Positions 15,132 through 50,617 of a DNA stretch of 64,000 nucleotides are shown here, in pieces (within the stretch, counting starts at the first letter, position 1; the number at the start of each line of letters is the position of its first letter). A program made the translations under genes and the position numbers. Origin of the DNA: an uncultured Bdellovibrionales bacterium (lineage in GTDB: Bacteria; Patescibacteriota; Minisyncoccia; Moranbacterales; GWC2-37-73); assembly GCA_964609855.1 (NCBI GenBank), contig CAZSTB010000001.1, forward strand, positions 119,170 through 183,169, read 5' to 3'. The notes beneath the pieces were generated by a model. That model did not search any database. It was given only the letters and a program-made list of their open reading frames with translations, and had not been told where the DNA came from.

Positions 15132-18100
15132 TTAGAACCTTTCGTTTTCATCTATAAATGTCATATATAAGGTGGGAACAATGAAGAGGGTGAAAAAGGA
15201 TGAAATGGAAAGACCGAAAATGACCGCGCTTCCCAGGGCTGTCCAGGTTTCATTGGAAAGTGTAATCGGAATGATGCCGGCAATTGTCACAATAGAAGTG
15301 ATAAAAATAGCTTCGAGTCTGGATTTTCCAGCGTCGATGATAGCTTCATTGAAAAGAATGCCAGTTTTGATATTGAGATTTATTTTGTCGATCAGGATGA
15401 TAGCATTTTTAACCACGATTCCAAAGAGAGCAAGGATTCCTATGAGCCCTGGGAAGCTCAAAGTTACCCCCAGAAGAGCCATTCCTAGGAAAACACCAAT
15501 AAGGGCCAGTGGCAAAGTTACGAGCACTATGATGGCTTTTTTGAACGAATTGAACTGTATCACAAGCGTTGAAATAATCAGGAGTGCTGCAATAGCCATG
15601 GCTCTGATAATAGAGAGAACTGACTCGGCATTCTGTTCATTTTCACCTCCAAAACTGATGACATATCCTTCAGGTAAAGAATAATTCTTGTGCATTTGGT
15701 CTTGGAATTTTTTGACAACTTCATTTGAATTAGTCGTACCGCTTACATCTGCTGTCAAAAGAACCGTCCTTTTCTGATCGATTCTGGAAATGGAATCGAC
15801 CGCAGGCGTGAGCTTGATTTGCGCCACATCCTTGATGAAAACAGGTTGCTTTTTATTATTAAGTATCTGAAGATTGGCGATGGCATCAAGCGTTGGAATG
15901 TTGTCACTTCCGAAGCGTGCCAGTACATCGATATCTTTGTTGTCGCGAATGACTGTGGTCACTGTAGTTCCAGAAATTGCAGTGCGCAAAATTGAGCCGA
16001 CTGCAGTTGCATTAAGATCATACATTTCCATTTTAAAATTATCCAAGGCAAATGTATATTCAGCTGGAGCATCTTTGAGGGAAATGTCGGAATTGATTGT
16101 GCCTTCAACTGCATCAATGATCGGTTTGAGATCGTTAGCGATCTTGTCCAAGGTCTGTAGATTTTCGCCGCTTATCTGAGCTTGAAAGGCGCTGCCTGAT
16201 GGCGGTCCTCCGCGGGGAGCGGAAACTGTAATAGTTGCATCTTGAATGTCAGAAAGTGCGCTTCTTATTTCATTTGCGATGTCGTAAGCTTTGACGGAGC
16301 GATTTTCAGTGGCTGTAAGCTTGATCGTGATAGCGGCAGTATTTGATTTGTTTGCGCCACCTCCGCCCATGCCTCCATTCGAGCCTGCATTACCGACGAT
16401 AGTTGAAAAGTTTTCTATATTTTCAATTTTCAGTAATCTGTTTTCAATTTCATTTGTGATTTTGTCGGTCTTATCCAAACTTAGTCCGACAGGACCGCGC
16501 AAGCTCACATAGAGCACATCTCCATCAGCAGCAGGGAAAAATTCCGACTTCACTACGCCAGTTATCGGCAGCGCAACTGCAAAAAGGAAGAGTGCGAGCG
16601 TTGAAAAAAGTGTAACCAGTCTTCTTTTTTTGGTACTCGTTGTCATTCTTAAATATTTTTCATAGACAGGTAGAATCTGATCAAAATGAATAATTCCGTG
16701 AATGAGCTTGCTAGCCAGTGTCGCGTCCTTTCGGTTTCCTTGAACAAGCAATTTTTGTTTGATAAGTTCATCGCTGTCCCATTCCTTTTCAGCTAAAGTG
16801 AAATTAGATTCCAACGTTATTTTGCCATTTGTGAAATACCAGAAAATCATCCAAGTAGTTATGGCGAAAGAAAAAGCTGCAAAAATATAACCGAGCGTTG
16901 AGTGTGCGGTTACTGATGATAAGCCTACCAGAAGAGTGGAGAATAGAATAAGCCAAAAGAATTTTTTGGTAAGTCTGATTCTTTCAAGCACAGCAGCCAG
17001 TGGATGATTGATCATTAAGGCGATTAACAGTGATGATACCAGTGTGACGGAAACAGTGATGGGAATTGATTTAATGAATTGTCCCATCATGCCCGAAGCC
17101 ATTAAGAGTGGCAAGAATGCCCAGACCGTTGCGAACGTTGTGGAAACTAAAACTACTTTGAAATCATTAAGCACAAGTAACACTGCTTCTTCCGGCGTAT
17201 ATTTCCCAGTTTTCATATACTGCTTGGTGGCGCTAACCACCACGATCGCGTCATCAACCAAAAGTCCAAGTGAAAGAAGTAGTGCAAAAATTGAAAGAAA
17301 ATTTAGCGACGTTCCCGTGGCCTGCATTACTCCAAACGTCACAAAGAAAACCAGGGGGATTGCAATTCCGGCCACGAAAGCTTCTTTTAGTCCGACGATT
17401 AAAAATAATATTCCAACCACCAAAATCAATGTCAACATGAAATCATGCGTCAATTGATCGAAATCTTTTCTAATTCTATCTGCTTGATTTACAGTGTCGT
17501 CATAGGCGATACCAGCTGGGAAAGTTTTGATCATCTCATCCATTTTCAGGTGAGCGCTGTCGACGCTGTCGATAATCGAGCCGCCTGTTCTCTTGACGAT
17601 TTGTAGGGTCACTGCGTTTTCTGGTGCATTTCCCGCAATAGAGAGACGGGAGTATAGAGTTTTTTCAATTGATTTTTCCTGCACTGCAGCAATATCTTTC
17701 AAAAAAACAACAGCACCTTGTTCGCTGTGAGTAATGGGAATTTCGCCTAATGTTTTGGCGTCGTAAAATCTTCCATCAGTTCTCACTGGGTAATTGAATT
17801 CACTCCCCTTGAAATTGCCGGCAGGAATTGCACGGTTGGCGAGTGCGATTGCGCTATTTGCTTGATCTGCTGAAATATTGAAAAGTGTTAATTTTTGCGG
17901 GTCATAAGCTACTTCGAATTCACTTTGGTCTCCTCCTGAAATATTCACCTCGCGAATTCCGGGAATTTTTTCAAGCTCATCTTGCATTTTTTCGGCATAC
18001 GTCCTCAATGTAAAACCATCATAGGGACCGACCAGTGCAAAGGTCACGATCGGCGTATCATCCAAAGAAATTTCGCGCACCTCGGGTTCATTTGCATCAG

Positions 18101-18542
18101 CTGGCAGATCTTGTTTGATGGCTGGCAGCTTGTCTCGCAATTTTCTTACGGAATCTTCGACATCCTGATCGGCTTCAAATTCAACGACGACTGTCGAAAA
18201 AGAGTTGGCAGAAGTAGAGGTTAATTTTTTGATACCAGTTATGCCGGAAACATTGGTCTCAATTTTTTTGGTCACCAATTCTTCCACATCAGAAGGAGAA
18301 GCGCCCGGATAAGCTGCGCTCACAATGGCTGTAGGAATTTTTACTTCAGGATTAGATTCAAGTGGGAGTTGTAGGAAAGAGTATATGCCCCAGCCTGAAA
18401 TTAAAATGATGAGCAGAACTACTACTCTAAAGTTTGAGACGAAAAAATTCAGCCAAGTATTTCTTAGTTCAGGTCTGAATTCAAGTTTTTCCAAATATGC
18501 GCCGTCACTCGAGGTGGCATGATTATTATTTTGAGTTTCCAT
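15132..18542 (-). CDS. RND superfamily efflux transporter permease (AcrB/HAE-type, 12 TM, two large periplasmic loops)
   Basis: 1136 aa with duplicated TM bundles and periplasmic domains. Sits with an adaptor and a MarR regulator. Confidence 0.85.
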   Translation of the reverse strand: METQNNNHATSSDGAYLEKLEFRPELRNTWLNFFVSNFRVVVLLIILISGWGIYSFLQLPLESNPEVKIPTAIVSAAYPGASPSDVEELVTKKIETNVSGITGIKKLTSTSANSFSTVVVEFEADQDVEDSVRKLRDKLPAIKQDLPADANEPEVREISLDDTPIVTFALVGPYDGFTLRTYAEKMQDELEKIPGIREVNISGGDQSEFEVAYDPQKLTLFNISADQANSAIALANRAIPAGNFKGSEFNYPVRTDGRFYDAKTLGEIPITHSEQGAVVFLKDIAAVQEKSIEKTLYSRLSIAGNAPENAVTLQIVKRTGGSIIDSVDSAHLKMDEMIKTFPAGIAYDDTVNQADRIRKDFDQLTHDFMLTLILVVGILFLIVGLKEAFVAGIAIPLVFFVTFGVMQATGTSLNFLSIFALLLSLGLLVDDAIVVVSATKQYMKTGKYTPEEAVLLVLNDFKVVLVSTTFATVWAFLPLLMASGMMGQFIKSIPITVSVTLVSSLLIALMINHPLAAVLERIRLTKKFFWLILFSTLLVGLSSVTAHSTLGYIFAAFSFAITTWMIFWYFTNGKITLESNFTLAEKEWDSDELIKQKLLVQGNRKDATLASKLIHGIIHFDQILPVYEKYLRMTTSTKKRRLVTLFSTLALFLFAVALPITGVVKSEFFPAADGDVLYVSLRGPVGLSLDKTDKITNEIENRLLKIENIENFSTIVGNAGSNGGMGGGGANKSNTAAITIKLTATENRSVKAYDIANEIRSALSDIQDATITVSAPRGGPPSGSAFQAQISGENLQTLDKIANDLKPIIDAVEGTINSDISLKDAPAEYTFALDNFKMEMYDLNATAVGSILRTAISGTTVTTVIRDNKDIDVLARFGSDNIPTLDAIANLQILNNKKQPVFIKDVAQIKLTPAVDSISRIDQKRTVLLTADVSGTTNSNEVVKKFQDQMHKNYSLPEGYVISFGGENEQNAESVLSIIRAMAIAALLIISTLVIQFNSFKKAIIVLVTLPLALIGVFLGMALLGVTLSFPGLIGILALFGIVVKNAIILIDKINLNIKTGILFNEAIIDAGKSRLEAIFITSIVTIAGIIPITLSNETWTALGSAVIFGLSISSFFTLFIVPTLYMTFIDENERF

Positions 18543-18591
18543 AAAGGTATCTTTAGTTATTCAGCTTGAGTTATCAGTAAGCTTTTGAAAA

Positions 18592-19698
18592 TTACTTTTT
18601 TAGCTCCACGGTTTCTCCGTCGCGAATTAATTTGTTTCCATCGACAATGATCTGAGTTTGATTAGGGATCGCCGCTGAAACCTCAGCCAATTCGCCGCTT
18701 ACATGCACCACGTCAACAAGAATTTTTTTAGCAACATTATTTTCTAAAACAAAAATATAACTTTCATTTTGACCTATGCCGATTGCGGACAGAGGTAGGA
18801 GGAGATTTTCAGGTTTTTCAACTGTCGCAATACTTTCAATGGTAACGGTAGCGATTGTTCCTGCTAGAAGAGGGGAGTCGGTAGTATTTTTCGGATAGGC
18901 TTCAATCAAAAAACGTTTCGTTATCGGGTCTGCAGCAGAAGCAATATTTCTTACCACTAAAGAATAAGCATTTCCATTGGCAGCAACGGCTGAAACTTCC
19001 TGTCCACGTGTAATTTTCTCTTTTTCAGTTTGATCGACATAGAACTTTACTTTCACATTGAATGATTTGCTGATACTGGCAATCAGTTGTCCGGCGGAAA
19101 CAGAATCCCCAATAGAAACGGCCTTGTTAGTGATGACACCAGAGATAGGACTAGTTATTAAGCGGTTATCCACATTTCCCTCAAGTCCCAAGGCTGCATT
19201 TTCAAATTGTAATTTGGCAATATCTTTCTGCGCCTTGGCGCTATCTTTCTGCGAGTTAGTAGCTTCGCTGGAATCTTTCAGGTTATCGTACAAATCTTTT
19301 GCTAATTCATAAGATTCCTTAGCCTGCTTGGCGGCAATTTCTGATTGCTGAACTTGCAGGCTTTTTAAACCCTGATCTCCAACTGCGATGTTTCCTGTGT
19401 CATCAATTTTTGCCAGAATAGAACCGGCCCTTACTGAATCTCCGATATTTGAGGGTGCGAAAGTGATAGTCCCGGAAGACTTGGCGGTAATTTTTATTTC
19501 CTGGTCGCCAACAATGCTGGCAGGATACTTTCTTGTCTGCGAAAACGTTTTTGTGTCAGAGGCAAGTTTTGCGGAGACTTTTGTGATTTTCTTTTCTGGT
19601 TGACTGGAATCTGTGGCGGCTTTTTGAGGTAGTCGCATCGCGATTATAAAGAGAGCTGCGATTGCTAGTGTAGATGCGATGATTTTTTTCTTGTTCAT
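18592..19698 (-). CDS. Efflux RND periplasmic adaptor subunit (HlyD family)
   Basis: Probable start is Met39 of the listed ORF (MNKKKIIASTLAIAALFII signal anchor), which removes the overlap with marR. Lipoyl/beta-barrel MFP domains present. Confidence 0.8.
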   Translation of the reverse strand: MNKKKIIASTLAIAALFIIAMRLPQKAATDSSQPEKKITKVSAKLASDTKTFSQTRKYPASIVGDQEIKITAKSSGTITFAPSNIGDSVRAGSILAKIDDTGNIAVGDQGLKSLQVQQSEIAAKQAKESYELAKDLYDNLKDSSEATNSQKDSAKAQKDIAKLQFENAALGLEGNVDNRLITSPISGVITNKAVSIGDSVSAGQLIASISKSFNVKVKFYVDQTEKEKITRGQEVSAVAANGNAYSLVVRNIASAADPITKRFLIEAYPKNTTDSPLLAGTIATVTIESIATVEKPENLLLPLSAIGIGQNESYIFVLENNVAKKILVDVVHVSGELAEVSAAIPNQTQIIVDGNKLIRDGETVELKK

Positions 19699-19735
19699 AA
19701 TTTCTTTACTGTAATTTATATTATTTGGCATCGAT

Positions 19736-20140
19736 TTAAAATCTAAATAGTTTTTCCAGTTCGCTTTCGCTGTTGTCCATGATGTCGTTAAGTTTTTGCA
19801 TGAACGCTTCATGCTGGGTTATTTCGTTTTTGCTTAATTTTTTCTCAACCGAAATTTTGGCCTTGGTCATGACTTTACGCATTTCTTTTAATTTCTTCTG
19901 ACCTTGGTCTGTAAGCAGCACTTTTACTTTACGTTTGTCTTTTTTGTCGGTTGCATAATCCCTCGTTATTAATCCTTCTTTTTCTAGAAAACTTAGCCGT
20001 TGGCTGATATTAGACTTGGTGGAATTGCTCAGCTCGATTATTTGACTTGGAGTCAATGATTTGTGATGAGAAAGCATACCCAAGATTTTCACGCTAGTTG
20101 AAGATAGCCCCATTGGGATAAAGATATATTTGTTGGCCAT
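19736..20140 (-). CDS. MarR family transcriptional regulator
   Basis: Winged HTH (LTPSQIIELSNSTKSNISQRLSFLEKEGLITR). Probable start at Met20 of the listed ORF. First gene of the MarR-adaptor-RND operon. Confidence 0.8.
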   Translation of the reverse strand: MANKYIFIPMGLSSTSVKILGMLSHHKSLTPSQIIELSNSTKSNISQRLSFLEKEGLITRDYATDKKDKRKVKVLLTDQGQKKLKEMRKVMTKAKISVEKKLSKNEITQHEAFMQKLNDIMDNSESELEKLFRF

Positions 20141-20261
20141 TGCTTCAATGCGATGCGCCAAACACACTATTGAGTGCAGGCTCGAATCGTTATGCATATT
20201 TGAGTGATTGTTAGATTGTTAACGTCTACATAGTTTATCAATAAACCATCTTTTGTCAAGG

Positions 20262-20423
20262 CACTAATCATTTAAACAGCTAATCATTCAAGCATTTAAA
20301 CAAATAAACATGTAAACATGTAAACACTTAATCATTTAAACATGTAAACATTCAAACATTCAAACATTCAAACATTCAAACAATATGAATCGCTGTTTAA
20401 ATGTTTACATGTTTAAATGATCA
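20262..20423. repeat. Iteron-like repeat block in the marR divergent promoter region
   Basis: taatcatttaaaca occurs twice, aacatgtaaaca three times, ttcaaaca four times in tandem. A 22-24 bp inverted repeat: taatcatttaaacatgtaaacatt (20329-20352) against aatgtttacatgtttaaatgatca (20399-20422). Confidence 0.6.
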
Positions 20424-20433
20424 TATGAAATGG

Positions 20434-20462
20434 TTGACTTTTTCCAAATTTGGGTGTATAAT
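20434..20462 (+). promoter_or_regulatory. Consensus sigma70 promoter (TTGACT-17-TATAAT)
   Basis: ttgactttttccaaatttgggtgtataat, immediately right of the repeat block. Confidence 0.5.
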
Positions 20463-20485
20463 AGATATAGTTGAATAGATAGAGT

Positions 20486-20509
20486 AAAAACGGGTGAAAG
20501 CCCGTTTTT
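20486..20509. terminator. Terminator-like hairpin with flanking A/T runs, about 25 nt downstream of the promoter (possible leader attenuator or bidirectional terminator)
   Basis: aaaaacgggtgaaagcccgttttt. A near-identical hairpin occurs at 38978-39002. Confidence 0.4.
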
Positions 20510-20596
20510 GCTTATTTTTCAAATTAATTTTAGCTTAACAAAGCCATTTAACCTTAAAAAGAGTTCGAAAGCGGGTGGTTAAATAGGTCAAAACAA

Positions 20597-21343
20597 ATGC
20601 GTAAAAAAGTAACAGCAAAAAAATCAAAAGCTTCAGTTAAGCCTAAAAAGGCTAAGACTATGCAAATGGTGAAAACTCAAAAAATCGCCAAGAAAGTTAA
20701 ACCTGCCAAGAAAGCTGTAGCAATAAGGAAAATTCGTAAGACTACGAAAGCGCTTTTCGCTTTAGGTAATTTAAATTCCTCGCATGCTAGAATTTTAATT
20801 TTATTGATCCTGATTATTTTTACTTTAACTTTCATGGTTGCATGGAGAATGCAAACTGATGATAATGATAATCTAAAAAATGCACAGATAAAGGTTGCCC
20901 AGGTTAAGCAGCAAACTCCCCTTGAAAAAGAAATTGCTGATATGGTGCAAGGTTATCCGATTGAAAAAATGATGCCATATATTTTGAAACAGGAGCCGAA
21001 GACCGCGATGTTTCTGGTGGCTATCGCTAAGAAAGAAAGTGCATGGGGAAAAAGGAAGCCGGTTTTAAATGGCGAAGATTGTTTCAATTATTGGGGCTTT
21101 CGTCTGAAAGCTGAACGAATGGGCTCAGGAGGTCATACTTGTTTTGACTCTCCAAAGCAAGCTGTTGAGAAAGTAGCTGAACGTATTGATCAGTTAGTCA
21201 AAGAAGAGGAAATCGATACGCCGTCTGACATGATCGTTTGGAAATGCGGTTATGGTTGTCAGGATAAACCCAAGACTATCAGTGAAAAAAAATGGATTAA
21301 TGATGTGGATTTCTATTACAGTGCGATGAATGAATATCTGTAA
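20597..21343 (+). CDS. Membrane-anchored GH73-like (ESxWG) putative peptidoglycan hydrolase with Lys-rich N-terminal tail (paralog family B)
   Basis: KAKK-rich N-terminus, one TM, then AIAKKESAWGKR...NYWGF...GSGGHTCF...WKCG. Paralogs at 48634 and 49871. Confidence 0.5.
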   Translation: MRKKVTAKKSKASVKPKKAKTMQMVKTQKIAKKVKPAKKAVAIRKIRKTTKALFALGNLNSSHARILILLILIIFTLTFMVAWRMQTDDNDNLKNAQIKVAQVKQQTPLEKEIADMVQGYPIEKMMPYILKQEPKTAMFLVAIAKKESAWGKRKPVLNGEDCFNYWGFRLKAERMGSGGHTCFDSPKQAVEKVAERIDQLVKEEEIDTPSDMIVWKCGYGCQDKPKTISEKKWINDVDFYYSAMNEYL

Positions 21344-21364
21344 AGATTCAATAGTGATATTTTC

Positions 21365-21389
21365 AAAAAAGGACTCCGGTCCTTTTTTG
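21365..21389 (+). terminator. Rho-independent terminator
   Basis: aaaaaaggactccggtccttttttg. Confidence 0.6.
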
Positions 21390-21477: not shown

Positions 21478-22536
21478 ATGAGTGATATTACGCTTCTTGT
21501 GAATTTTTATCCGACTACCAGATGCAATGTGGGTTGTTCGCACTGCATTGATGATGCATGCATGAAAAACCCGATTGATCTTCCGATTGAATATGTTCAC
21601 TTGCTAAACAAGCAGCTCGAGAAGCATCAATACTATGCCCAATATTGCGCCACAGGGAATGGAGAACCATTGCTTCATCCGAAATTCAACGCGTTGATTG
21701 ATTCGTTGTTTTCTTATCGCAGAAATAAGGGCATGACTTTACTCACTGCTGGTTATAACAATAAGGAATTGGAAAAACGTGATAATTTCAGAAGGCTCCT
21801 GCAAAAGGATTATATCAGAAGAATTCAGCCACATTTGAGTTTCAATTTGTACTCGGATTTTCCTGAGCGGTGGGATGCTGTTTTGCCAGACATTATGAAC
21901 TGTGAAAGGGATTTCAGTGTTCTTGCAAATATTTGTTACAGTGTCAGTAATCGGCTGGAAACGTTGAAAAGTTTTGATGATATATTCCGACGATATGCAC
22001 TGAACAGTGGATATGGCGAAAATCTGAGAGCATTAATTTGTGGAGGAGGGAGTCAATTTTGTCTTCGAGCTGAGCCTTTAGTGGATAGCCATGGCTTCCC
22101 ATATCATGAAAGACAAATGCTTTTGCCTCAAAACTTCATCTACTTTCTGTCTGGAAAGCATGGAAGACGCTTTTTCGGAGTGCGACGTGCGCATATTGCC
22201 AAACAAGGAAGAGCGGCGCAATTGAGGGAGATTATTGCAGGAAAAGATTATTGCCCAGATTTCTTGAGTGAATTTAATCTCGAGCTTCATCTTAATCCGG
22301 ACGGATTTTGGTATGCCAATCACACTTGTCCTAAAATTCCGCAATTGTGCCTGGGTCATATCGAAAAAGATGATATTGACGTGATAGTGCGTAGAAAGTT
22401 TTTCTTTTGGAGATTTATAAATAGCGCACTTATCTTGGAACGTAGGAATTATGATCCAATGGAGCCTTGCGCCGCATGCCTCATGCTATGCAATGAGCAT
22501 GACGTTATGAGTGTTATCAGCGAAATTGCTGAATAG
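21478..22536 (+). CDS. Radical SAM enzyme with Cys-rich C-terminal (SPASM/twitch-like) extension
   Basis: CNVGCSHC (Cx3Cx2C) at residues 16-23. GNGEPLLHP SAM-binding motif. C-terminal cysteines CPKIPQLC...CAACLMLC. Confidence 0.7.
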   Translation: MSDITLLVNFYPTTRCNVGCSHCIDDACMKNPIDLPIEYVHLLNKQLEKHQYYAQYCATGNGEPLLHPKFNALIDSLFSYRRNKGMTLLTAGYNNKELEKRDNFRRLLQKDYIRRIQPHLSFNLYSDFPERWDAVLPDIMNCERDFSVLANICYSVSNRLETLKSFDDIFRRYALNSGYGENLRALICGGGSQFCLRAEPLVDSHGFPYHERQMLLPQNFIYFLSGKHGRRFFGVRRAHIAKQGRAAQLREIIAGKDYCPDFLSEFNLELHLNPDGFWYANHTCPKIPQLCLGHIEKDDIDVIVRRKFFFWRFINSALILERRNYDPMEPCAACLMLCNEHDVMSVISEIAE

Positions 22537-22540
22537 TTTC

Positions 22541-22571
22541 GATGCCGACTTGAAAAAGTCGGCATTTTTTT
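22541..22571 (+). terminator. Rho-independent terminator
   Basis: gatgccgacttgaaaaagtcggcattttttt overlaps the first 60 nt of the listed ORF 22511, which argues for a later true start. Confidence 0.6.
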
Positions 22572-22618
22572 ATAAAAAACAAAACTTAAAGGACTTTTTA
22601 CAATTTTTAATTTATGCT

Positions 22619-23047
22619 ATGATGGAAAAACGTTGCGGAGCAACACGGAAAGTAATAAATAAAACTAATAATAAAATTATGCAAAACATCCAAGACGTTT
22701 TCAATCATATTCGTGAGATGAAAAAAGAACAAAAAGATTTGCGCGATATGTATAAGGATGCGCTTGTGCAAGCCGATGAATATGAGGAAATTGTAGAAAA
22801 AATTACAGTTTTGCGTGAAAAGAAAAAAGAGATTGAAGCTCGTATCCAAGCTCAATTAGGAAGAGCTTACGAAAAACTGGAGGACTTGAAGCGTGAAGTT
22901 GATACCGAAAAAGAAATGATGAATGATATCGCAATCTCAACTTTGATGAAAGGGGAGACTGTTTTGGTGAAAGATGAATTTGATAACGACTATGAACCCA
23001 ACTGGAAAGTGGCTTTTAAAAAAGCTAACGGTGGAACTACGGTTTAG
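22619..23047 (+). CDS. Hypothetical coiled-coil protein (start uncertain; alternative Met at 22679)
   Basis: Charged heptad-like region EIVEKITVLREKKKEIEARIQAQLGRAYEKLEDLKREVD. The start was moved past the upstream terminator. Confidence 0.4.
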   Translation: MMEKRCGATRKVINKTNNKIMQNIQDVFNHIREMKKEQKDLRDMYKDALVQADEYEEIVEKITVLREKKKEIEARIQAQLGRAYEKLEDLKREVDTEKEMMNDIAISTLMKGETVLVKDEFDNDYEPNWKVAFKKANGGTTV

Positions 23048-23068
23048 TTTATATCCAAAAAAGCTCTT

Positions 23069-23099
23069 AAAAAATCTCGCATTTATGCGGGATTTTTTT
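23069..23099 (+). terminator. Rho-independent terminator
   Basis: aaaaaatctcgcatttatgcgggattttttt. Confidence 0.45.
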
Positions 23100-23175
23100 G
23101 TTGCCTAAAGAATAAGCAAAAAATCAAATTGTAATATTCGGTAGCTGAAAAGCTGATAACAATAAATATGAAGAT

Positions 23176-24141
23176 ATGAAAAATAATAATCGAGTAGCTT
23201 TAATCGGTAGCGGTTTCGTCGGTGAAGCGGCTGGCAGGGGCTTTCATGAAAAGGGAAATGACGTTTTCTTTTTCGATATAAATAAATTCGTAATAGCTGC
23301 TTTGCAACAAGCGGGATTTAAAGCCGACCATATTAGTAGGCTTGACGACACTTCTAGTTTTTTTGATTTTTTATTATTAAGTTTGCCGACTCCCACCATC
23401 GGCGGACACACCTCCCTCGAGTTTTTAAAAGTCGCTTTAACGGATGTGGGAAAATATTTAAAAGGTGCAAGCAACTATCCGGTTATTGTGGTTAGAAGCA
23501 CTGTTCCACCTGGCACAACTGAGGATTTGGTTATTTCTATTTTAGAAAAAAAATCCGGAAAAAAAATAGGCAGAGATTTCGGTGTTTGTATGAATCCGGA
23601 ATTTCTCAGGGAGGCAACAGCAAAAGAGGATTTTGCGAGACCATGGATAATCGTAATCGGAAGTAATGATGAAAGATCGCGCACACGTTTGCATGACTTG
23701 TATGCGCCTTTTAAGAGTCCGATTGTTCACATGTCCATTAAAGAAGCGGAAATGACAAAATATGTGCACAACCTTTTAAATGCCACCAAGATCTCTTTCT
23801 TCAACGAAATGAGGGCAGTGAATGAGATGATGGGAATCGATTCGGAACTTGAATTCAAAACAGTTGTAAAGAGCGCGGAAGCGATTTGGAATCCCGAATA
23901 CGGAACAAAAGATTTCGGACCTTTCGGAGGTTCATGTCTGCCGAAGGATACGAGCGGATTTTTTAGCTGGGTGAAAGATAGACACAAGATGGAACTCCCG
24001 GTTTTAAAGGGAACGATAGAAACTAATGAGTGGATGAAAAAAAACAAGACAGTTGAAGCTGAAAAAGGTGTTAAAAATTACCCTAAAATGCTTGGCGTTT
24101 TAAAAATCAAAAAACTGCATAAGAAAAAAATTAATATTTAA
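23176..24141 (+). CDS. Short UDP-glucose/GDP-mannose dehydrogenase family protein, lacking the C-terminal nucleotide-sugar-binding domain
   Basis: Rossmann IGSGFVGEAAG. Catalytic GFGGSCLPKD Cys motif. Only 321 aa, ending shortly after the central domain. Confidence 0.65.
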   Translation: MKNNNRVALIGSGFVGEAAGRGFHEKGNDVFFFDINKFVIAALQQAGFKADHISRLDDTSSFFDFLLLSLPTPTIGGHTSLEFLKVALTDVGKYLKGASNYPVIVVRSTVPPGTTEDLVISILEKKSGKKIGRDFGVCMNPEFLREATAKEDFARPWIIVIGSNDERSRTRLHDLYAPFKSPIVHMSIKEAEMTKYVHNLLNATKISFFNEMRAVNEMMGIDSELEFKTVVKSAEAIWNPEYGTKDFGPFGGSCLPKDTSGFFSWVKDRHKMELPVLKGTIETNEWMKKNKTVEAEKGVKNYPKMLGVLKIKKLHKKKINI

Positions 24142-24145
24142 AGGT

Positions 24146-26914
24146 ATGTACGAAGATTTTTTAAGATATTTGAATATTGTATGGTTTTTTGTGCCTTTGG
24201 GCGTAGTGGGAATTTGGAGGTGGTCAATCTGGCTCACAAAAAAGTTGGTAGCGGCATTTTATCGGATGCCATCGGGAGAAATTCTCAAAGCCACCTTGGC
24301 GATAATAACGCCGGTTTATAATGAAAATCCACAAATATTCAAATGCGCCTTGAATTCCTGGAAAATGAATGGATCGCCTGATGAGATTATTGCCGTAATA
24401 GATTTTACAGATGAGGCATGCATTGAAGTGTTTAAAAGTTTTGCAAGAAAAAATCTTAGCGCAAAACTTATCGTCACGAAACTGCCGGGCAAAAGACAAG
24501 CATTAGCGGATGGCATTAGAAATGCAAGCAGCGAATTTGTGGCGCTTGTTGATAGTGACACGCTCTGGATTGATCCAATCAGGGATAAACTGCTGGCGCC
24601 TTTTTCGGATAATTTAGTTGGTGGAGTTTCGCCGCGGCAAGATATTTATCAGCCCAATAGTTTGGCGAGAAAATTATTCCAACTGAATTTATATAATCGG
24701 TATTTCGTTGAGATGCCTTTTTTGGGAGCGGTTGGCGATGCCCTGACTTGCTTGTCTGGCAGAACTGCTGTTTATAGGAAGTCTGCGGTCGAAGATGTGC
24801 TTGACCGACTGGTTGAAGAAAAATTTTTAGGTACGCCGTCGGTAAGCGGCGACGATAAGACATTGACGAGATTGATTCAGCAGGCCGGATGGAAAGCGAA
24901 ATACTTACGCGAAGCAGTGGTTTATACGCCGGGATTTAAGCGTCTTACTCCTTTTCTGCAGCAGATTATTCGTTGGAGTCGAAACAGTTGGCGTAGCGAT
25001 CTGCAAACCGTCTTTGACGGCTGGGTCTGGAAAAACCATAAAGTTCTCGGTTTGTATATGCTCGATAGGTTCCTGCAACCGTTTACATTGCTTTTGTCGC
25101 CGGTTTATTTGGTAGTGGCCCTAAGCTCTGGATATTGGAGATTCGCAGTTATTCTTATTATCTGGTGGCTGTTTAGCAGATCGATAAAAGTTTTTGGTCA
25201 TTTGAAAAAGCATCCAAGAGATATCTTAATCATTACACAGTATGTGATATTCACATTTGTTTCAGCGCTGATAAAAATTTATGCCTTGATAACTATCATG
25301 CAGCAAGGGTGGATTACTCGTTGGGACAAGAGCCGCATGCGAAAAATATCACTGCCGCTTCAATCATTCGCTTATGCGTTCACAGCTTTAATTATCTTTG
25401 CTTATGTGGGCATGATTTTTACATATAGAAATGAATCAAATCAAACTCAAAATTTTGATAATATCGCAATTAAAAGCGTCATTGCGACCGGTCCGAGAGA
25501 ACTTTCCAATTCTCGGCTAGTTGCCATGAAGCAGGATATATTAGCGGGAAGCGTAAATGATTCCAACGGAATTTACGCCGTAAAGTCAGGTGATTTTTTG
25601 CTGCTCTTGAAAAACAAGTTCAATCTAGCTTCCATTGATTTTTTGAAAACTGCAGATAATGAACCAATTGTGAATCCTAATAATATTTCCGTCGGACAAA
25701 AAATCGCCATCCCGTCGAAAGAAATGCGAAATATTTTAAATGCGGATGAGCTTCGCAAAAAGTCATATCGCCCTGCGATAATATTTTATGACAGCGGCTT
25801 GGATACGATATTTATTAAAGGCAGCGGAAGTGTGGTTACACCAACCATAATCAATAAGGCGCTTGGACGAAATTCTTCACTGCAAAAAACAAGCGATGGG
25901 GAATGGCTTTTGAAATCCAATCTTTACATAGGAAAAAATGTTACCTTGGTAATTGATAAACAGGATACGAAATATTTAAAATTAAAAAGTGACAATGAAA
26001 AATTTATCTGGATTCGTTCGCAAAATGGAAACATTCTGATTTCAGATACGAAAGTAACATCTTGGAATGAAAAAACTCAGCAACCAGATGACGAGCATAT
26101 TGATGGTAGAAGTTACATAACGGCTAAATCCAGCGGACGAATGGATATAACTAATTCTGAAATCGGACATTTGGGATATGTGGGTCTGCCGAAAAGAGGA
26201 GGACCGTTTGGCGGCTCATATGGGTTGTCTTGGAAAATAACCAGCGGAAAATTCAAGGACAATTTACTGACAGGTTCAGTCATGAACAGTTCGATTCATG
26301 ATAATTATTTCGGAATCTACTCTTTCGGCGCAACTGGGATTCTAATAAAAAATAACGATGTATTTCATAATGTGGAATACGGAATCGACCCACATGATGA
26401 TTCCAATAATTTTTTGATTACAGAAAATAGGACATACGAAAATGGAAATCATGGCATTATTCTTTCCAAGCGGTGTGTTAATAACGAAATTACAAATAAT
26501 ATTTCTTATAATAACAAGCTGCACGGAATAATGCTTGATCGGGATTCTAATAATAATTATGTGATTGGGAATGAGGTTTATGGAAATATTGACGGGATAA
26601 CTGTTTTCGAATCCGAACGAAATTTCATATTTGAGAATAAAATTGCTGATAACAAGCAAGGCATTCGACTCAATGGTGGTTCGGAATTTAACTATATCGA
26701 AAAAAATAATATTAGGAATAATGAAACGGGCATGCATGTGTATGGCGGCTCGAATAATAACGTAGCACTTAATAACAGTATTGTATCGAATAAAATAGGC
26801 TTATCTATTCAAAATTCGAACGGGAATATTTTTTATGGCAACTTTAAGCCGCATGACAATGAAAAAGATGGACACATAAATGTTGAATTAATCAGAAATG
26901 AAATTAAATTATAA
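24146..26914 (+). CDS. Processive family-2 glycosyltransferase (HasA/NodC/chitin-synthase-like) fused to a LysM domain and a right-handed parallel beta-helix domain
   Basis: ITPVYNE, DSDT, LSGRTAVYRK, SGDDKTLTR and QQIIRWSRNSW (QxxRW) motifs. About 6 TM helices. LysM (YAVKSGDFLLLL...VGQKIAIP). More than 10 ~22-residue NxxxxN beta-helix coils (NNxIxxN...GIxL). Confidence 0.7.
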   Translation: MYEDFLRYLNIVWFFVPLGVVGIWRWSIWLTKKLVAAFYRMPSGEILKATLAIITPVYNENPQIFKCALNSWKMNGSPDEIIAVIDFTDEACIEVFKSFARKNLSAKLIVTKLPGKRQALADGIRNASSEFVALVDSDTLWIDPIRDKLLAPFSDNLVGGVSPRQDIYQPNSLARKLFQLNLYNRYFVEMPFLGAVGDALTCLSGRTAVYRKSAVEDVLDRLVEEKFLGTPSVSGDDKTLTRLIQQAGWKAKYLREAVVYTPGFKRLTPFLQQIIRWSRNSWRSDLQTVFDGWVWKNHKVLGLYMLDRFLQPFTLLLSPVYLVVALSSGYWRFAVILIIWWLFSRSIKVFGHLKKHPRDILIITQYVIFTFVSALIKIYALITIMQQGWITRWDKSRMRKISLPLQSFAYAFTALIIFAYVGMIFTYRNESNQTQNFDNIAIKSVIATGPRELSNSRLVAMKQDILAGSVNDSNGIYAVKSGDFLLLLKNKFNLASIDFLKTADNEPIVNPNNISVGQKIAIPSKEMRNILNADELRKKSYRPAIIFYDSGLDTIFIKGSGSVVTPTIINKALGRNSSLQKTSDGEWLLKSNLYIGKNVTLVIDKQDTKYLKLKSDNEKFIWIRSQNGNILISDTKVTSWNEKTQQPDDEHIDGRSYITAKSSGRMDITNSEIGHLGYVGLPKRGGPFGGSYGLSWKITSGKFKDNLLTGSVMNSSIHDNYFGIYSFGATGILIKNNDVFHNVEYGIDPHDDSNNFLITENRTYENGNHGIILSKRCVNNEITNNISYNNKLHGIMLDRDSNNNYVIGNEVYGNIDGITVFESERNFIFENKIADNKQGIRLNGGSEFNYIEKNNIRNNETGMHVYGGSNNNVALNNSIVSNKIGLSIQNSNGNIFYGNFKPHDNEKDGHINVELIRNEIKL

Positions 26915-36338: not shown

Positions 36339-36536
36339 ATGATGTTAATGATTTATTTTTGCTGGTTTATGTCTGAGAATGAAACAACTGAAAAATATAA
36401 AAAAGCCTGGGAAAAATTTCAGGAAAAGATGGCCTCATTGAAAAAGAGACGCCATGAAATTTTGGCGCGCATTTCTGAGAAGTTGGATAGGCAACATATC
36501 GAAAAACTAAGAAAAAAATTAGAAGATCATGTATAA
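36339..36536 (+). CDS. Small hypothetical protein, overlaps downstream gene by 8 bp (ATGTATAA)
   Basis: 65 aa charged helical ORF, translationally coupled with 36529. Confidence 0.3.
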   Translation: MMLMIYFCWFMSENETTEKYKKAWEKFQEKMASLKKRRHEILARISEKLDRQHIEKLRKKLEDHV

Positions 36537-38776: not shown

Positions 38777-38977
38777 TGAGGGCACAATTACATGCAAGAC
38801 TGGCGCCAATGCGGGAGTTTATCCCAGTATTTGTAATTAAATACTTATAGCTGTGAAGCAGAATTAATTGGTTAATGAATAGAATTAAAAATAAAAACAG
38901 GCATTGGACAAGAGTCAAAAAACATGCTACAATTAATGTATGCTTGATATGCGGGATTTTTCCCGGAAAAATAAGTA

Positions 38978-39002: not shown

Positions 39003-39044
39003 GTGGTAAATATTTAAATTTGGTAGTTTAAAAGGCTTAAATTT

Positions 39045-48191: not shown

Positions 48192-48593
48192 ATGAACAAA
48201 AAAATATTCAGTTCAATTTTAATAGTTGCTGTTTTTATTATTGTTGTGTTTATGGTTCGAGAAGATCAGCAGCCTGAAAATGAAGCTGCGACAATTCTTC
48301 TAGCGAAAGGCGGGGAGGCAAATTCAGACATTCATTATTTTTATGGACAGGAATGCTCGCACAGTAAAAATGTTGAAAAATTCATTAGTGAAAATAAGGT
48401 AGAGGAAAAAATTTTTATTACGAAAAAAGAGGTCTGGCATAATACTGAAAATGAATCTGATATGCAGATAAAAGCCATGGGTTGTGGACTTAGCAGTGAT
48501 AAGGTTGGGGTTCCGTTTCTATTTGCAAGAGGTAAGTGTTATGTTGGTGAAATAGAGGTTAAAAAATTCCTTCAAATGGAAATTGGCTTGTAA
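48192..48593 (+). CDS. Hypothetical membrane-anchored protein (possible thioredoxin-like fold, single Cys)
   Basis: N-terminal TM. YFYGQECSHSKNVEKFI is weak evidence only. Confidence 0.3.
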   Translation: MNKKIFSSILIVAVFIIVVFMVREDQQPENEAATILLAKGGEANSDIHYFYGQECSHSKNVEKFISENKVEEKIFITKKEVWHNTENESDMQIKAMGCGLSSDKVGVPFLFARGKCYVGEIEVKKFLQMEIGL

Positions 48594-48633: not shown

Positions 48634-49650
48634 ATGAAACAAAAACAAAAATCATTAGATATAAGCAAGGCTAGGGTGGTCCAGGATGAATCAAATTATG
48701 ATGCTCGATCTGTTAAATCGGTACTTTTTTCGCGAGGAAAAAAGACCGAAACATTTTTCACGGAAGATTCTCGTTTATATGTGACTCCTCGCGAACAAAT
48801 ATTGATTAGAAAAGGAATAAATCTTGATAGAGGTACTAGGCAATGGGATAGTCTTAGTTCGCGGATTGTTTCTCGTTTCGTTTATCAAAAACCAATGGGA
48901 ACAAGTATTCTCCTTAGGCACTTGGAAAATCGTTATTCGATTCTCAATGCTTCAATTGATGAAGCTTCGCAGGGATTTGCTGATTATTTCTCCGTTGTAC
49001 GACTTTGGAATCTTTCAATAGTCGGCTCAATTTTATTTGGTATGGTGACGATGACCTTCATATATCGTTATCTGGGACAAGGTGCAGCAGCTGACCAGCT
49101 CAATGCTCCTGAGGTTTCACAGGAACTTATTCAGGCAGAAAAGGTTTTAGGAGCAGATGTCAGTAGTAATGACGCAGTAGAATTTACCAAGCAGATAATG
49201 CAAATACAGGAGGAAAATGATCAGAAAAAATTTGAAAAAGAATTAAAAGAAATGGTTAAAGGTCACCCGATTGAAAAGATGGTTCCTTATATTATCAAAA
49301 AGGATCGCATAACAGCAGCCTTCATTGTGGCAATTGCTAGAAAAGAGAGTAATTGGGGCAAGCGTCGACCAGTGCTGAATGGTCAGGATTGCTATAATTA
49401 TTGGGGTTATCGCGGTCAGAGAAAATTAATGGGTTCAGGTGGACATACGTGTTTTAATAGTCCTCAAGATGCAGTCGATACTATTGCCAAAAGACTCGAC
49501 ACTTTGATCAAGAAAGATGGTCGCAATACACCCTCAGAAATGGTCATTTGGAAATGCGGCTCAAACTGTTCTGTAACCGGTGGTCAGGCTGCGGCTAATA
49601 AGTGGATCAGTGATGTTGAAGGAATTTTTGAGCAATTAAATATTGATTAA
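48634..49650 (+). CDS. Membrane-anchored GH73-like (ESxWG) putative peptidoglycan hydrolase (paralog family B)
   Basis: AIARKESNWGKR...NYWGY...GSGGHTCF...WKCG. Long N-terminal extension with a TM segment. Confidence 0.5.
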   Translation: MKQKQKSLDISKARVVQDESNYDARSVKSVLFSRGKKTETFFTEDSRLYVTPREQILIRKGINLDRGTRQWDSLSSRIVSRFVYQKPMGTSILLRHLENRYSILNASIDEASQGFADYFSVVRLWNLSIVGSILFGMVTMTFIYRYLGQGAAADQLNAPEVSQELIQAEKVLGADVSSNDAVEFTKQIMQIQEENDQKKFEKELKEMVKGHPIEKMVPYIIKKDRITAAFIVAIARKESNWGKRRPVLNGQDCYNYWGYRGQRKLMGSGGHTCFNSPQDAVDTIAKRLDTLIKKDGRNTPSEMVIWKCGSNCSVTGGQAAANKWISDVEGIFEQLNID

Positions 49651-49687
49651 ATAAGCCCGAAAACTACCTAGCTTCTTAAAAAGCCCA

Positions 49688-49713
49688 TTTTTATGGGCTT
49701 TTTAAATTATGGT
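49688..49713 (+). terminator. Rho-independent terminator
   Basis: aaaaagcccatttttatgggcttttt. Confidence 0.6.
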
Positions 49714-49870: not shown

Positions 49871-50617
49871 ATGAGTGACCCTTTACCCTTGGGGAAAACG
49901 TACAAATTAAAGACCCTTAAATTAATTAAACGATTTATGGGCGCCCTAAGAAATCTCAATTTTCTATCTGTAGCGGTCGTAGTGATAATTTTTGGCTTAA
50001 TGCTGCGCATTAATGACGTACAGTCAGCTGCCAGGGCTAAGGCTGAGCAGGATCTGCCTGATAAGAAAATTGAAGAAATGGTCAATAAAAGTGCTTTATT
50101 TCAAGAAAGCTACCTATTTGACAGCTCTGCTGAAACTATTGAGCAACTAAATGAGAATAATAAGACCGTTTTAAAACGGGATATTGTAAAAGATGGCTCA
50201 AATGAGCTATTTTCCAAGAAATTACAGGAAATTGTGGGTGATGCGCCTATCTCTGAAATGGTGCCATTTATCTCAAAAAGAGACGAAAAAGTTGCGGCTT
50301 TTTTGGTGGGCATTGCTAAAAAGGAGAGTAGCTGGGGACAACACGCACCTAGTCAAAACGGTAGAAATTGTCATAACTATTGGGGATATAAAGGTTCAGG
50401 CAGTTTGGGAACAGGAATGGGATATGCTTGTTTTGCAAGTGCTGAGGAGGCTGTAGAAGTTGTAGGAAATAGAATTGAGGTTTTGATAAATAAGAAAAGA
50501 GACACTCCATCTCGCATGGTCGATACCTGGAAATGTGGTACAACCTGTAAAGGTGATCCGGGAGCTCCAAGTTGGGTAGCAACTGTTGCGCTATATTTTG
50601 AAAAAATTACAAGTTAG
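49871..50617 (+). CDS. Membrane-anchored GH73-like (ESxWG) putative peptidoglycan hydrolase (paralog family B)
   Basis: GIAKKESSWGQH...NYWGY...WKCGTTC. Tandem with 48634. Confidence 0.5.
   Translation: MSDPLPLGKTYKLKTLKLIKRFMGALRNLNFLSVAVVVIIFGLMLRINDVQSAARAKAEQDLPDKKIEEMVNKSALFQESYLFDSSAETIEQLNENNKTVLKRDIVKDGSNELFSKKLQEIVGDAPISEMVPFISKRDEKVAAFLVGIAKKESSWGQHAPSQNGRNCHNYWGYKGSGSLGTGMGYACFASAEEAVEVVGNRIEVLINKKRDTPSRMVDTWKCGTTCKGDPGAPSWVATVALYFEKITS

Follow-up and report, generated by a model that had tools for sequence, protein, structure and literature searches.

Glycoside hydrolase family 73 (GH73; PF01832), which includes FlgJ, LytB, AtlA, Auto and the C. difficile endolysin Ecd09610, has an invariant general-acid Glu on a central helix, Glu184 in Salmonella FlgJ, while its second carboxylate has been elusive and the hairpin carboxylate is not universal in the family (PMC4752226). 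Two described systems place peptidoglycan-cleaving enzymes at the membrane. SagB of Staphylococcus aureus is a membrane-anchored glucosaminidase; it has a single transmembrane (TM) helix and a catalytic Glu, it cleaves nascent strands, and a housekeeping role has been proposed for it on glycan strands that are nascent or newly made (10.1101/2020.05.21.109470). It works with SpdC, an eight-TM, polytopic, CAAX-protease-like partner that forms a substrate path. The membrane-bound glycosidases MltG and MpgA cleave nascent strands at a fixed distance from the lipid anchor (10.1101/2021.03.06.434200).

Here we describe three genes, in a 64,000-nucleotide stretch of DNA (the window) from a member of the Moranbacteria (candidate phyla radiation, CPR), whose products resemble SagB and SagA in having one TM helix at the N terminus and, after it, an extracytoplasmic domain of glucosaminidase type (10.1101/2020.05.21.109470). 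The predicted structures and the gene context lead us to favor, with moderate confidence, a reading of all three as type-II (N-in, C-out) membrane-tethered housekeeping glycosidases of peptidoglycan glycan strands. They differ from SagB in that the latter is a bona fide PF01832 member, and no SpdC-like partner was found among the immediate neighbors of the three genes. The available portion of the SagB report likewise makes no mention of a Lys-rich tail or a four-Cys signature such as this family has (10.1101/2020.05.21.109470). The family is lineage specific and unannotated in databases but does not amount to a system of a new kind.

Three tethered proteins with a common domain

All three open reading frames were confirmed on the + strand, to which all coordinates refer: paralogue 1 (20597..21343, 248 aa), paralogue 2 (48634..49650, 338 aa) and paralogue 3 (49871..50617, 248 aa), belonging to orthogroups 1, 2 and 3, respectively. 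Each consists of a basic cytoplasmic N terminus, one TM helix, a flexible linker and a lysozyme-superfamily domain of about 140 aa. In paralogue 1, a Lys-rich cytoplasmic tail (residues 1-63; 20597..20785) is followed by the TM signal-anchor (residues 64-85; 20786..20851), the linker and the predicted GH73-like domain (residues 104-248; 20906..21340). Paralogue 2 has a 124-aa N-terminal cytoplasmic region, a TM segment at residues 125-143 (49006-49062) and the domain at 49216-49647, and paralogue 3 has a short basic N terminus, a TM segment at residues 29-47 (49955-50011), a disordered linker and the domain at 50195-50614. An N-terminal TM anchor had been claimed for all three proteins in a first-pass annotation of this DNA, and this holds: a single TM segment was found in each (best 19-residue Kyte-Doolittle means of 2.68, 1.62 and 2.40 for proteins 1, 2 and 3), and long N-terminal helices are predicted at residues 61-89 of protein 1 and 31-61 of protein 3. 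Terminator-like hairpins lie 3' of all three genes (21364-21389, 49676..49705 and 50647-50674), in agreement with the claim that each has its own terminator.

The C-terminal domain is indeed common to the three proteins, at a length of 140 to 145 aa and not the approximately 130 aa first given. Over this domain, proteins 2 and 3 are 52% and 39% identical to protein 1, and a domain HMM run against the 64-kb window finds exactly three copies, which are the three open reading frames. On sequence grounds, a chance origin of the shared domain is ruled out, as hundreds of homologues keep it. The motifs by which the domain was recognized are likewise real, though their spelling needed correction. The ES motif reads AIAKKESAWG, AIARKESNWG and GIAKKESSWG in proteins 1, 2 and 3; NYWG(F/Y) follows in all three; the third motif is GSGGHTCF in proteins 1 and 2 and GMGYACF in protein 3; and WKCG is the last motif in all. 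The Trp of ESxWG is not invariant, varying across 55 homologues with ESSFG in many orthogroup-3 members, and the family form is K-E-S-x-(W/F)-G, in which the Glu is invariant.

Predicted fold, candidate active site and relation to GH73

The first-pass annotation had left it to be checked whether the domain is lysozyme-like, and the structure models indicate that it is. The model of protein 1 has pLDDT values above 90 over most of residues 105-248, and that of paralogue 3 (domain pLDDT mostly above 90) has the same secondary-structure order and topology. Both predict the GH73 arrangement of an alpha-helical lobe with a central helix set against a beta-lobe or hairpin across a groove. The top three Foldseek matches to the domain model were GH73 enzymes, the best being Sphingomonas FlgJ; GH23 transglycosylases were almost as near structurally, the likeness to these being at the superfamily level only.

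In a profile alignment to FlgJ (hhalign; probability 74%, E = 2.7e-5, 54 columns), E147 of protein 1 falls on the Glu of ALESGWG, NYWG has YNLFG as its counterpart, and the post-hairpin segments CFxSPxEAV (this family) and YSSYxEAL (FlgJ) coincide. Two proposals of the earlier annotation are thereby borne out, namely that the ES Glu corresponds to the GH73 catalytic Glu and that NYWG corresponds to the GH73 NxxFGI segment (YNxFG in FlgJ). The order of elements is also that of GH73: the central-helix Glu in (A/K)ES(x)WG, N-(Y/x)-(W/F)-G about 16 residues past it, and then a post-hairpin helix with aromatic-x-S-x-x-E-A.

Searches with curated profiles gave weaker signals. Weak matches to PF01832 came from 27 of 64 sequences at full length and from 15 of 28 restricted to the domain, and the best whole-protein E-values in the family were 0.0098 and 0.003. 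For the three window proteins the scores were 15.2 bits, 13.5 bits and no match (E = 0.036 for paralogue 2 and 0.12 for paralogue 3), and no family member reached the Pfam gathering cut-off of 30.2 bits. Family profiles built from 3, 64 and 28 sequences found nothing significant among PDB chains, the matches to hemagglutinin, calmodulin and serpin being noise; FlgJ appeared at E = 0.41, from the 3-sequence profile only. NCBIfam and PHROGs searches gave no usable match. The hhalign alignment to FlgJ ends before the G-Y-A-T-D-P-x-Y motif, which is invariant in the FlgJ alignment. The family has WKCGxxC in this region, where YATDPxY stays unaligned; the Gly-Tyr of the WKCG-Y-GC found in orthogroup 1 might correspond to YATDP, but in orthogroups 2 and 3 the residue in place of the Tyr is Ser, Thr, Arg or Lys.

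The models describe the domain as a very divergent lysozyme-type (GH73-like) fold whose nearest solved relatives are GH73 beta-N-acetylglucosaminidases, and the family falls outside GH73 by the curated Pfam criterion. The original description of the proteins as GH73-like stands as regards the fold and the alignment of the Glu; it does not extend to membership in GH73, given the subthreshold Pfam scores, the deletion of the hairpin Glu and the unaligned YATDP. Further departures from GH73 are that the domain always lies C-terminal to a TM anchor and that the family occurs essentially in a single CPR lineage. The label "muramidase" was the wrong default: because members of GH73 are N-acetylglucosaminidases, with GH23 transglycosylases nearly as close in structure, the fold does not fix bond specificity.

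The proximity of GH23 raises the alternative that these proteins are lytic transglycosylases, in which a single Glu would promote attack by the MurNAc C6-OH and leave 1,6-anhydroMurNAc ends, rather than hydrolyzing the strand. As in the GH23 family-1 enzymes Slt70, Cj0843c and MltE, the central helix would carry a catalytic E-S dyad, and there would be only one catalytic Glu; one invariant carboxylate only is also what GH23 and goose-type enzymes have, and hhalign finds a local match to the Slt70 catalytic motif AIARQESAW. That match, however, spans 17 columns at a probability of 2.6%, against 54 columns and 74% for FlgJ, and MltE gives no match. Pfam SLT reached E ≤ 1 in none of the 28 domain sequences, as opposed to 15 of 28 for PF01832, and the GLMQ and AYNxG motifs of GH23 family 1 are absent. 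We therefore regard transglycosylase activity as unlikely.

The candidate general acid is Glu147 in paralogue 1 (21035-21037), Glu238 in paralogue 2 (49345-49347) and Glu152 in paralogue 3 (50324-50326), located at the C-terminal end of the central helix (predicted helix 134-151 in protein 1). It is invariant in the 64-, 55- and 28-sequence alignments and is the sole invariant acidic residue of the family. Unlike FlgJ (Glu223), Auto (Glu156) and TM0633, the family is without the long beta-hairpin that bears a second carboxylate: an 18-residue gap relative to FlgJ in the hhalign alignment removes the TTEYENG... hairpin segment containing Glu223, and the family alignment holds no second invariant carboxylate. 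An acidic residue at position 173 is confined to sequences of the H180 type (GS[GNS]GH), of which 21 of 23 have it; the exceptions include paralogue 2 of the window, which has Lys. Since the FlgJ-type hairpin Glu is deleted and no second carboxylate is conserved, catalysis would probably be substrate assisted or proceed via a water molecule, with orthogroup 1 keeping the extra D/E at position 173.

The domain also has four invariant Cys that set it apart from GH73, in paralogue 1 Cys162 (21080-82), Cys182 (21140-42), Cys217 (21245-47) and Cys221 (21257-59). These would make two disulfides or a metal site and so staple the shortened beta-lobe and the WKCGxxC loop. The family shows the extent to which the GH73 core can shrink, with the hairpin Glu lost and four Cys gained, and this bears on the unresolved mechanism of GH73.

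Gene context, distribution and likely substrate

Paralogues 2 and 3 lie in a conserved cluster with the order AI-2E, Lgt, (thioredoxin-like), orthogroup 2, orthogroup 3, EamA and GH42-like. Lgt is present in 27 of 32 such tandem loci, and a CxxC thioredoxin-like protein occupies the indicated position in 16 of the 32. In the window, the latter is a membrane-anchored, thioredoxin-fold-like protein encoded directly upstream of paralogue 2 (48192..48593); it has no Pfam match, and it has CSHS where its orthologues have C(P/S)HC, with the alignment showing CxxC and GVPF motifs. It possibly handles the thiol-disulfides of the four-Cys domains and may thus service them. A YkuD L,D-transpeptidase gene 2.6 kb downstream adds to the envelope context of the tandem cluster. 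The adjoining Lgt had suggested that the three proteins might be lipoproteins, a reading we rejected because the four domain positions account for every Cys in them.

Membrane tethering and this envelope-biogenesis cluster together point to action on the wall of the cell itself. The short tether would confine the enzymes to that wall, where they would act on glycan strands by trimming, releasing or separating them, in the manner of SagB and of MltG/MpgA-type enzymes, the latter being of a separate, YceG-type family. Judged from tethering and gene context only, the cell's own peptidoglycan is what the three enzymes most likely cut.

The earlier annotation had instead suggested predatory or episymbiotic lysins, for which we found no positive evidence. 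On that account, the proteins would be displayed or released at a contact site to breach a host wall or harvest muropeptides. Moranbacteria do fall within the CPR, a group whose members in culture are episymbionts (PMC12102498), several paralogues are maintained, and the small-residue stretch VQSAARAKA after the hydrophobic segment of paralogue 3 could be a signal-peptidase site. However, an N-terminal anchor and a short or disordered tether are present in all three proteins, which have no cell-wall-binding or secretion-system domains. Their neighbors are envelope-biogenesis genes such as Lgt, not secretion or pilus genes, and no effector-immunity pairing is seen. A host-directed role accordingly seems improbable.

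It is less probable still, and in our view very unlikely, that the domain cuts another beta-1,4-linked glycan (chitin, chitosan, mannan or a surface polysaccharide) or is a noncatalytic glycan-binding module. A UDP-glucose dehydrogenase gene and a GT2 gene with a beta-helix lie near gene 1, and the tandem pair has a GH42-like gene close by, as such a substrate might lead one to expect. Yet the polysaccharide genes beside gene 1 are an insertion without counterpart in other genomes, the best structural signal and all recurrent sequence signals are to peptidoglycan-active GH73, and the invariant Glu at the catalytic position speaks against a module that only binds.

The family of putative wall glycosidases is small and isolated in sequence, with 313 representatives among 1.84 billion proteins, and it is essentially confined to Moranbacteria. 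Every named protein among the relatives listed is a "hypothetical protein," and none of those listed has a precomputed Pfam domain. The identification fills an annotation gap by placing putative GH73-like wall glycosidases in the cell-envelope inventory of a major CPR lineage whose machinery for growth and division is still little understood. In other genomes, too, members of all three orthogroups share contigs. As ancient positional orthogroups found across Moranbacteria, the three copies diverged long ago, and "expanded family," as they had been called, misleads by implying local expansion; they would be nonredundant.

The earlier remark that holin and phage genes are lacking beside the three genes is correct, the adjoining genes being chromosomal envelope and housekeeping genes. 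A phage origin of the family was rejected: tblastn against 50,697 phage records returned nothing relevant, BFVD gave no match at E ≤ 1e-3, and no PHROGs lysin family was matched.

The tail and 5' leader of orthogroup 1

The eukaryotic H1 C-terminal tail, chlamydial Hc1 and the FtsN cytoplasmic tail are polybasic tails that offer leads for comparison with paralogue 1. Residues 1-63 of this protein contain 19 Lys, 3 Arg and no Asp or Glu (net charge +22). Lys-richness had been reported as KAKKxK repeats; the richness is evident, but a strict repeat is not. What is kept in the aligned orthogroup-1-type homologues is composition, with lengths of 25 to 126 aa and net charges of +1 to +44, and a conserved tail of this kind is limited to orthogroup 1. 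Like the tails of polybasic nucleoid and division proteins, it is of low complexity, rich in K/A/P/T, free of acidic residues and cytoplasmic, and it drifts in length and sequence. It differs from them in being joined to an extracytoplasmic wall hydrolase and in that homology to such families is undetectable: no Pfam or NCBIfam match to H1, Hc1 or AlgP-type families was found even at E ≤ 10. The tail is thus "histone-H1-like," as first described, in composition alone. Its partner could be nucleic acid, anionic lipid or a division protein.

A conserved 124-aa protein encoded downstream of orthogroup 1 was considered as a partner or immunity protein and set down as mere synteny. It is acidic and coiled-coil-like and has no hydrophobic leader, and so appears to be cytoplasmic; at 85 to 92% identity, its conservation far exceeds that of the hydrolase, and a radical-SAM gene separates it from gene 1 in the window. 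Co-regulation of gene 1 by MarR is possible in the window, but MarR/RND adjacency occurs in only about 9 to 10 of 54 single-copy loci and so does not define the locus. The nearest PF04020 "holin_4_2"-like membrane protein is encoded 8.4 kb downstream of gene 1, as part of a conserved chromosomal synteny.

Upstream, gene 1 has a sigma-70-type promoter (20434..20462; TTGACT, 17 nt, TATAAT, with TGGGTG upstream) that agrees with the consensus at 11 of 12 positions, and in 21 aligned loci the -35 and extended -10 boxes lie at constant spacing upstream of orthogroup-1 genes. A terminator-like 5' leader hairpin follows (20469..20522), composed of AAUAGAUAGAG, then AAACGGG-UGAAAG-CCCGUUU, and then a U-rich tail. 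No Rfam family was found at gathering score in the whole window, the hairpin is absent from Rfam, and permissive matches in the leader region were set aside as miRNA-type noise on AT-rich repeats. Orthogroup 1 would be transcribed through this conserved hairpin, which probably holds expression low or conditional.

Taken further, these features could describe an orphan glycoside hydrolase family specific to Moranbacteria (a minimal GH73-like core with a truncated hairpin and two disulfides or a Cys4 metal site), in which the orthogroup-1 tail couples wall cleavage to the nucleoid, RNA or divisome and an undescribed 5' leader acts as an attenuator or mRNA-control hairpin, the whole forming a lineage-specific autolysis control circuit in ultra-small cells. 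We offer this composite picture as a speculative one that is rather doubtful as a whole. The cluster of Lgt, CxxC protein and two hydrolases, the polycationic tail and the leader hairpin are in any case handles on autolysin control in ultra-small uncultivated bacteria.

The hairpin occurs once in the window, against zero expected by chance, and folds at -23.4 kcal/mol (z = -7.2). Among 27 distinct aligned sequences, pairing holds in 81.7% of cells, and both sides have changed at 10 pairs; none of 500 shuffles reached the observed value on four of five measures, and 5 of 500 did so for cells changed on both sides. The slide control has its peak at 0. In metagenomes, each of the 17 matches to the hairpin core lies directly 5' of a family gene.

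Fold and placement of the family

The proteins encoded at 20597-21343, 48634-49650, and 49871-50617 (proteins 1, 2, and 3; 248, 338, and 248 aa) are best placed in a new branch of the GH73-like lysozyme superfamily, isolated in sequence and specific to Moranbacteria. All three open reading frames called in the first-pass annotation are present, on the + strand, and a terminator-like hairpin lies 3' of each, in line with the individual terminators it had proposed. Their common C-terminal domain spans about 140-145 aa, with protein 2 being 52% and protein 3 being 39% identical to protein 1 across it, and an HMM of the domain finds exactly three copies in the window, which has a GC fraction of about 0.35-0.41. 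Hydropathy places one strongly hydrophobic segment N-terminal to the domain in each protein, and this segment is a long helix in both structure models (proteins 1 and 3), which bears out the transmembrane (TM) anchor seen on first reading. The membrane-anchored architecture is fixed in the family: a basic N-terminus, one TM helix, a linker, and a lysozyme-like domain.

No curated family model recognises these proteins. The sole recurrent weak match is to PF01832 (27 of 64 full-length and 15 of 28 domain-only sequences; best E 0.003), and the window proteins score 15.2 bits, 13.5 bits, and no match against its cut-off of 30.2 bits; the SLT family matched 0 of the 28 domain-only sequences. In profile-profile comparison, 34 columns of the family align when E. 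coli FlgJ alone is the target (E = 3.5e-4), and 54 columns when a 22-sequence FlgJ profile is used (probability 74%, E = 2.7e-5). Here Glu147, in protein 1 numbering, falls on the Glu of FlgJ ALESGWG, as had been supposed from the motif; that residue, Glu184 in Salmonella FlgJ, is the invariant general acid (PMC4752226). The NYWG segment, whose resemblance to GH73 had also been pointed out, aligns to FlgJ YNLFG, and the post-lobe CFxSPxEAV aligns to YSSYxEAL. Unlike GH73 enzymes of the FlgJ/Auto type, the family stays below the curated threshold, lacks one hallmark element, and seems to lack a second: the FlgJ hairpin segment TTEYENG, bearing the second catalytic Glu, lies opposite an 18-residue gap, so that this Glu is lost, and the C-terminal GYATDPxY motif of FlgJ is outside the 54-column alignment. 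The GH23 signal is weaker than the GH73 signal in these sequence comparisons, with Slt70 matching over only 17 columns at its catalytic helix AIARQESAW (probability 2.6%) and MltE giving no match. Family sequence profiles gave no significant match to PDB chains.

An AlphaFold2 model of protein 1, built from a 64-sequence alignment, has a mean pLDDT of 80.8, with residues 105-248 mostly >90, and its top Foldseek match in the PDB is Sphingomonas FlgJ (GH73, E = 4.8e-3). The model of protein 3, the most divergent paralogue, arranges its helices and beta-lobe in the same order (domain pLDDT mostly >90; linker residues 72-102 disordered). Structure prediction, the check named in the first-pass annotation, and the match to FlgJ therefore place the domain in a lysozyme-type fold, with GH73 as the best match, and not in a non-lysozyme fold.

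Across 55 sequences covering the orthogroups, the invariant residues include P121, M125, K146, E147, S148, G151, P155, G159, C162, and N164-Y165-W166-G167 in the first half and C182, F183, W215, K216, G218, C221, and W233 in the second. E147 is the only acidic residue among them. Each of proteins 1-3 has exactly four cysteines, all at equivalent positions of the domain, and these are invariant in the family apart from C217, which a single sequence lacks. The ESxWG motif originally named survives in part, since K-E-S and G are invariant and the Trp is frequently Phe in orthogroup 3; the family signatures are KES-x-(W/F)-G, C-x-NYWG, C-F, and WKCG-x-x-C. Two sequence types can be told apart. The first (orthogroup 1 plus the window's paralogue 2) has His at position 180, Asp at 161 in 22 of 23 sequences, Asp or Glu at 173 in 21 of 23, and a variable position 224; the orthogroup-3 type has Tyr, Thr, Gly, and an invariant Asp at these respective positions. 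Of the two first-type sequences that lack an acidic residue at 173, one is paralogue 2 of the window, with Lys there.

Distribution and gene neighbourhoods

Across 1.84 billion representative proteins, exhaustive profile searching returned just 313 matches at E <= 1e-3, 235 of them at E <= 1e-30, and did not spill over into the very large GH73 family; the domain is at or near the C-terminus in 150 of the 150 matches listed. Scanning one genome per GTDB species revealed at least 556 loci encoding the family, with titles that are overwhelmingly Moranbacteria, Moraniibacteriota, or Patescibacteria, and the closest protein relatives of the window are labelled Candidatus Moranbacteria, Moraniibacteriota, or Patescibacteria; the DNA is accordingly assigned to a CPR bacterium in the Moranbacteria lineage. 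A literature search of incomplete coverage found no paper describing the family. Many co-assembly MAGs titled 'uncultured Bdellovibrionales' and one titled 'Micavibrio sp.' also carry family genes (L009, L019, L027, and L030 of our numbered loci, among others). The Bdellovibrionales-titled MAGs have domains 52-88% identical to the query, several share the synteny, and at least one (L009) has the leader element described below; the bins are probably Patescibacteria under a wrong taxonomic title.

The three copies belong to distinct orthogroups and do not reflect a local expansion. In other genomes, long contigs (e.g., 297, 211, and 181 kb) carry relatives of both paralogue 1 and paralogue 3, and the downstream genes, of the window's paralogue 3 type, cluster apart from the remaining family genes; the notion of an expanded family is accordingly dropped. 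Of 86 fetched loci, 32 have two or three family genes side by side in one orientation, the long gene preceding the short one in all but one. These tandem genes lie within a conserved co-directional cluster that runs, in order, AI-2E transporter (22/32), Lgt (27/32), membrane-anchored thioredoxin-fold-like protein (16/32), long and short hydrolase (32/32 each), EamA transporter (20/32), and GH42-like protein (16/32). In the window, the small thioredoxin-fold-like gene upstream of paralogue 2 (48192-48593) has no Pfam match and reads CSHS at the CxxC site; its orthologues (n=18) have C(P/S)HC and also a GVPF motif, and the window copy is a monothiol form of this conserved extracytoplasmic CxxC protein. 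A YkuD L,D-transpeptidase lies 2.6 kb downstream of the window's pair.

Orthogroup 1 has a separate, looser synteny, with MgsA and an efflux operon upstream and a 124-aa protein, Dus, a PF04020 membrane protein, and Obg downstream. The window's efflux operon (15132-20197, - strand) encodes MarR, a membrane-fusion protein (MFP), and a 1136-aa RND (AcrB-type) pump and is divergent from gene 1. This RND operon adjoins orthogroup 1 in some relatives; others have an MFP and a MacB ABC pump instead. Between the divergent starts of the MarR gene and gene 1, the intergenic DNA at 20249-20428 holds an array with 8-bp periodicity, comprising ~15 direct units (CATNTAAA / TAAACATn) and then 3-4 inverted units, with one arm pair of 28 nt being 96% complementary; it may be an operator array of the MarR-type regulator. 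Downstream, a block of a radical-SAM gene and polysaccharide genes (21478-28184; UDP-glucose dehydrogenase, GT2 with beta-helix, BNR protein) interrupts the conserved order of orthogroup 1, 124-aa gene, and Dus/PF04020/Obg. The 124-aa protein (22679-23047) is acidic and looks coiled-coil from its sequence. Its gene is directly downstream of orthogroup 1 in other genomes, and it is 85-92% identical between genomes where the hydrolase orthologues are only ~55-60% identical.

Proposed mode of action

GH73 is the nearest structural neighbour, and the putative mode of action is GH73-like. The proteins would lie N-in and C-out, and the invariant Glu would protonate a beta-1,4 bond of the peptidoglycan glycan strand. 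Because no second carboxylate is universal, catalysis would be substrate-assisted or water-mediated. The bond cut could be either GlcNAc-MurNAc or MurNAc-GlcNAc, by hydrolysis or transglycosylation, and with nearest relatives in GH73 the label 'muramidase' is not retained. The four cysteines may be joined in disulfides or bind a metal, and the neighbouring CxxC protein may service them.

The tether would restrict these enzymes to the cell's own wall, which argues for a possible housekeeping role in glycan-strand trimming or release, or in daughter-cell separation, and speaks against predatory lysins. Such a role can be likened to that of membrane-anchored SagB (10.1101/2020.05.21.109470) and of the membrane-bound MltG/MpgA enzymes (10.1101/2021.03.06.434200). 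The absence of phage genes noted earlier extends to relatives: none was found in 50,697 phage records, no PHROGs lysin family matched, and a viral structure library gave no significant match. Overall, the fold and catalytic motif of the first-pass annotation stand; 'muramidase', 'H1-like', 'expanded', and 'predatory' do not.

The orthogroup-1 tail and leader

The least ordinary elements of the family are a polycationic tail and a conserved leader hairpin. Residues 1-63 of protein 1 contain 19 Lys, 3 Arg, and zero acidic residues. Among aligned orthogroup-1-type homologues, the pre-TM segment varies from 25 to 126 aa, with 18-52% Lys+Arg and a net charge of +1 to +44, and the distance from TM helix to ES motif is fixed at 56-65 residues. 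Within this one orthogroup the tail is thus conserved in composition, as is typical of disordered regions that have a function. It matches no histone-like family in Pfam or NCBIfam, leaving the H1 likeness one of composition only, and by the positive-inside rule it is predicted to be cytoplasmic.

Gene 1 has a strong promoter (20434-20462, +) and a terminator-like hairpin (20482-20513, +), both 5' of its start codon at 20597. The unit comprises a -35 box TTGACTTTT, a 17-nt spacer, TGGGTGTATAAT, a ~11-nt spacer, AATAGATAGAG, the hairpin AAACGGG-TGAAAG-CCCGTTTTTGC, and a T-rich tail. It occurs once in the window (20434-20522) and is nearly base-for-base identical 5' of orthogroup-1 genes in >20 genomes (including some among loci L002-L027 and L088-L104), the catalytic domains of which are only ~56-88% identical to the window's. 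An unbiased search for the exact pattern in 241 million metagenome records returned 17 matches, each immediately 5' of a family gene.

When folded, the leader RNA forms an extended hairpin (-23.4 kcal/mol, z = -7.2). Over 27 distinct sequences, one of which supplied the structure and in which the core stem barely varies, 81.7% of cells are paired, with many one-sided changes that keep pairing (A-U/G-U, U-G/C-G) and some two-sided ones. None of 500 shuffles reaches the observed value on four of five measures, and 5 of 500 do so for cells changed on both sides; a slide control is highest at register 0. In several genomes only ~20 nt separate the hairpin from the start codon, which leaves no space for another promoter, so transcription of the mRNA must continue through the hairpin. 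The element is absent from Rfam and is read as a candidate cis-acting leader, either an attenuator or an element that acts on mRNA stability or translation.

In the window, 38906-39003 holds a promoter-like site (TTGGAC ... TACAAT, by eye) and then two hairpins, the second of which, AAAGACGGGTGAAGCCCGTCTTTTTT, resembles the leader hairpin and stands a short way 5' of an unrelated 185-aa gene starting at 39045. L008 has a similar hairpin (8202-8219). In this lineage, CGGG-UGAA(A)G-CCCG hairpins close to a promoter may serve regulation more widely. Elsewhere in the window, 36529-38451 encodes a 640-aa protein with repeated proline-rich units (TPPPLPxEYL; PPPLP ~six times) that, in translation, recall eukaryotic polyproline ligand motifs.
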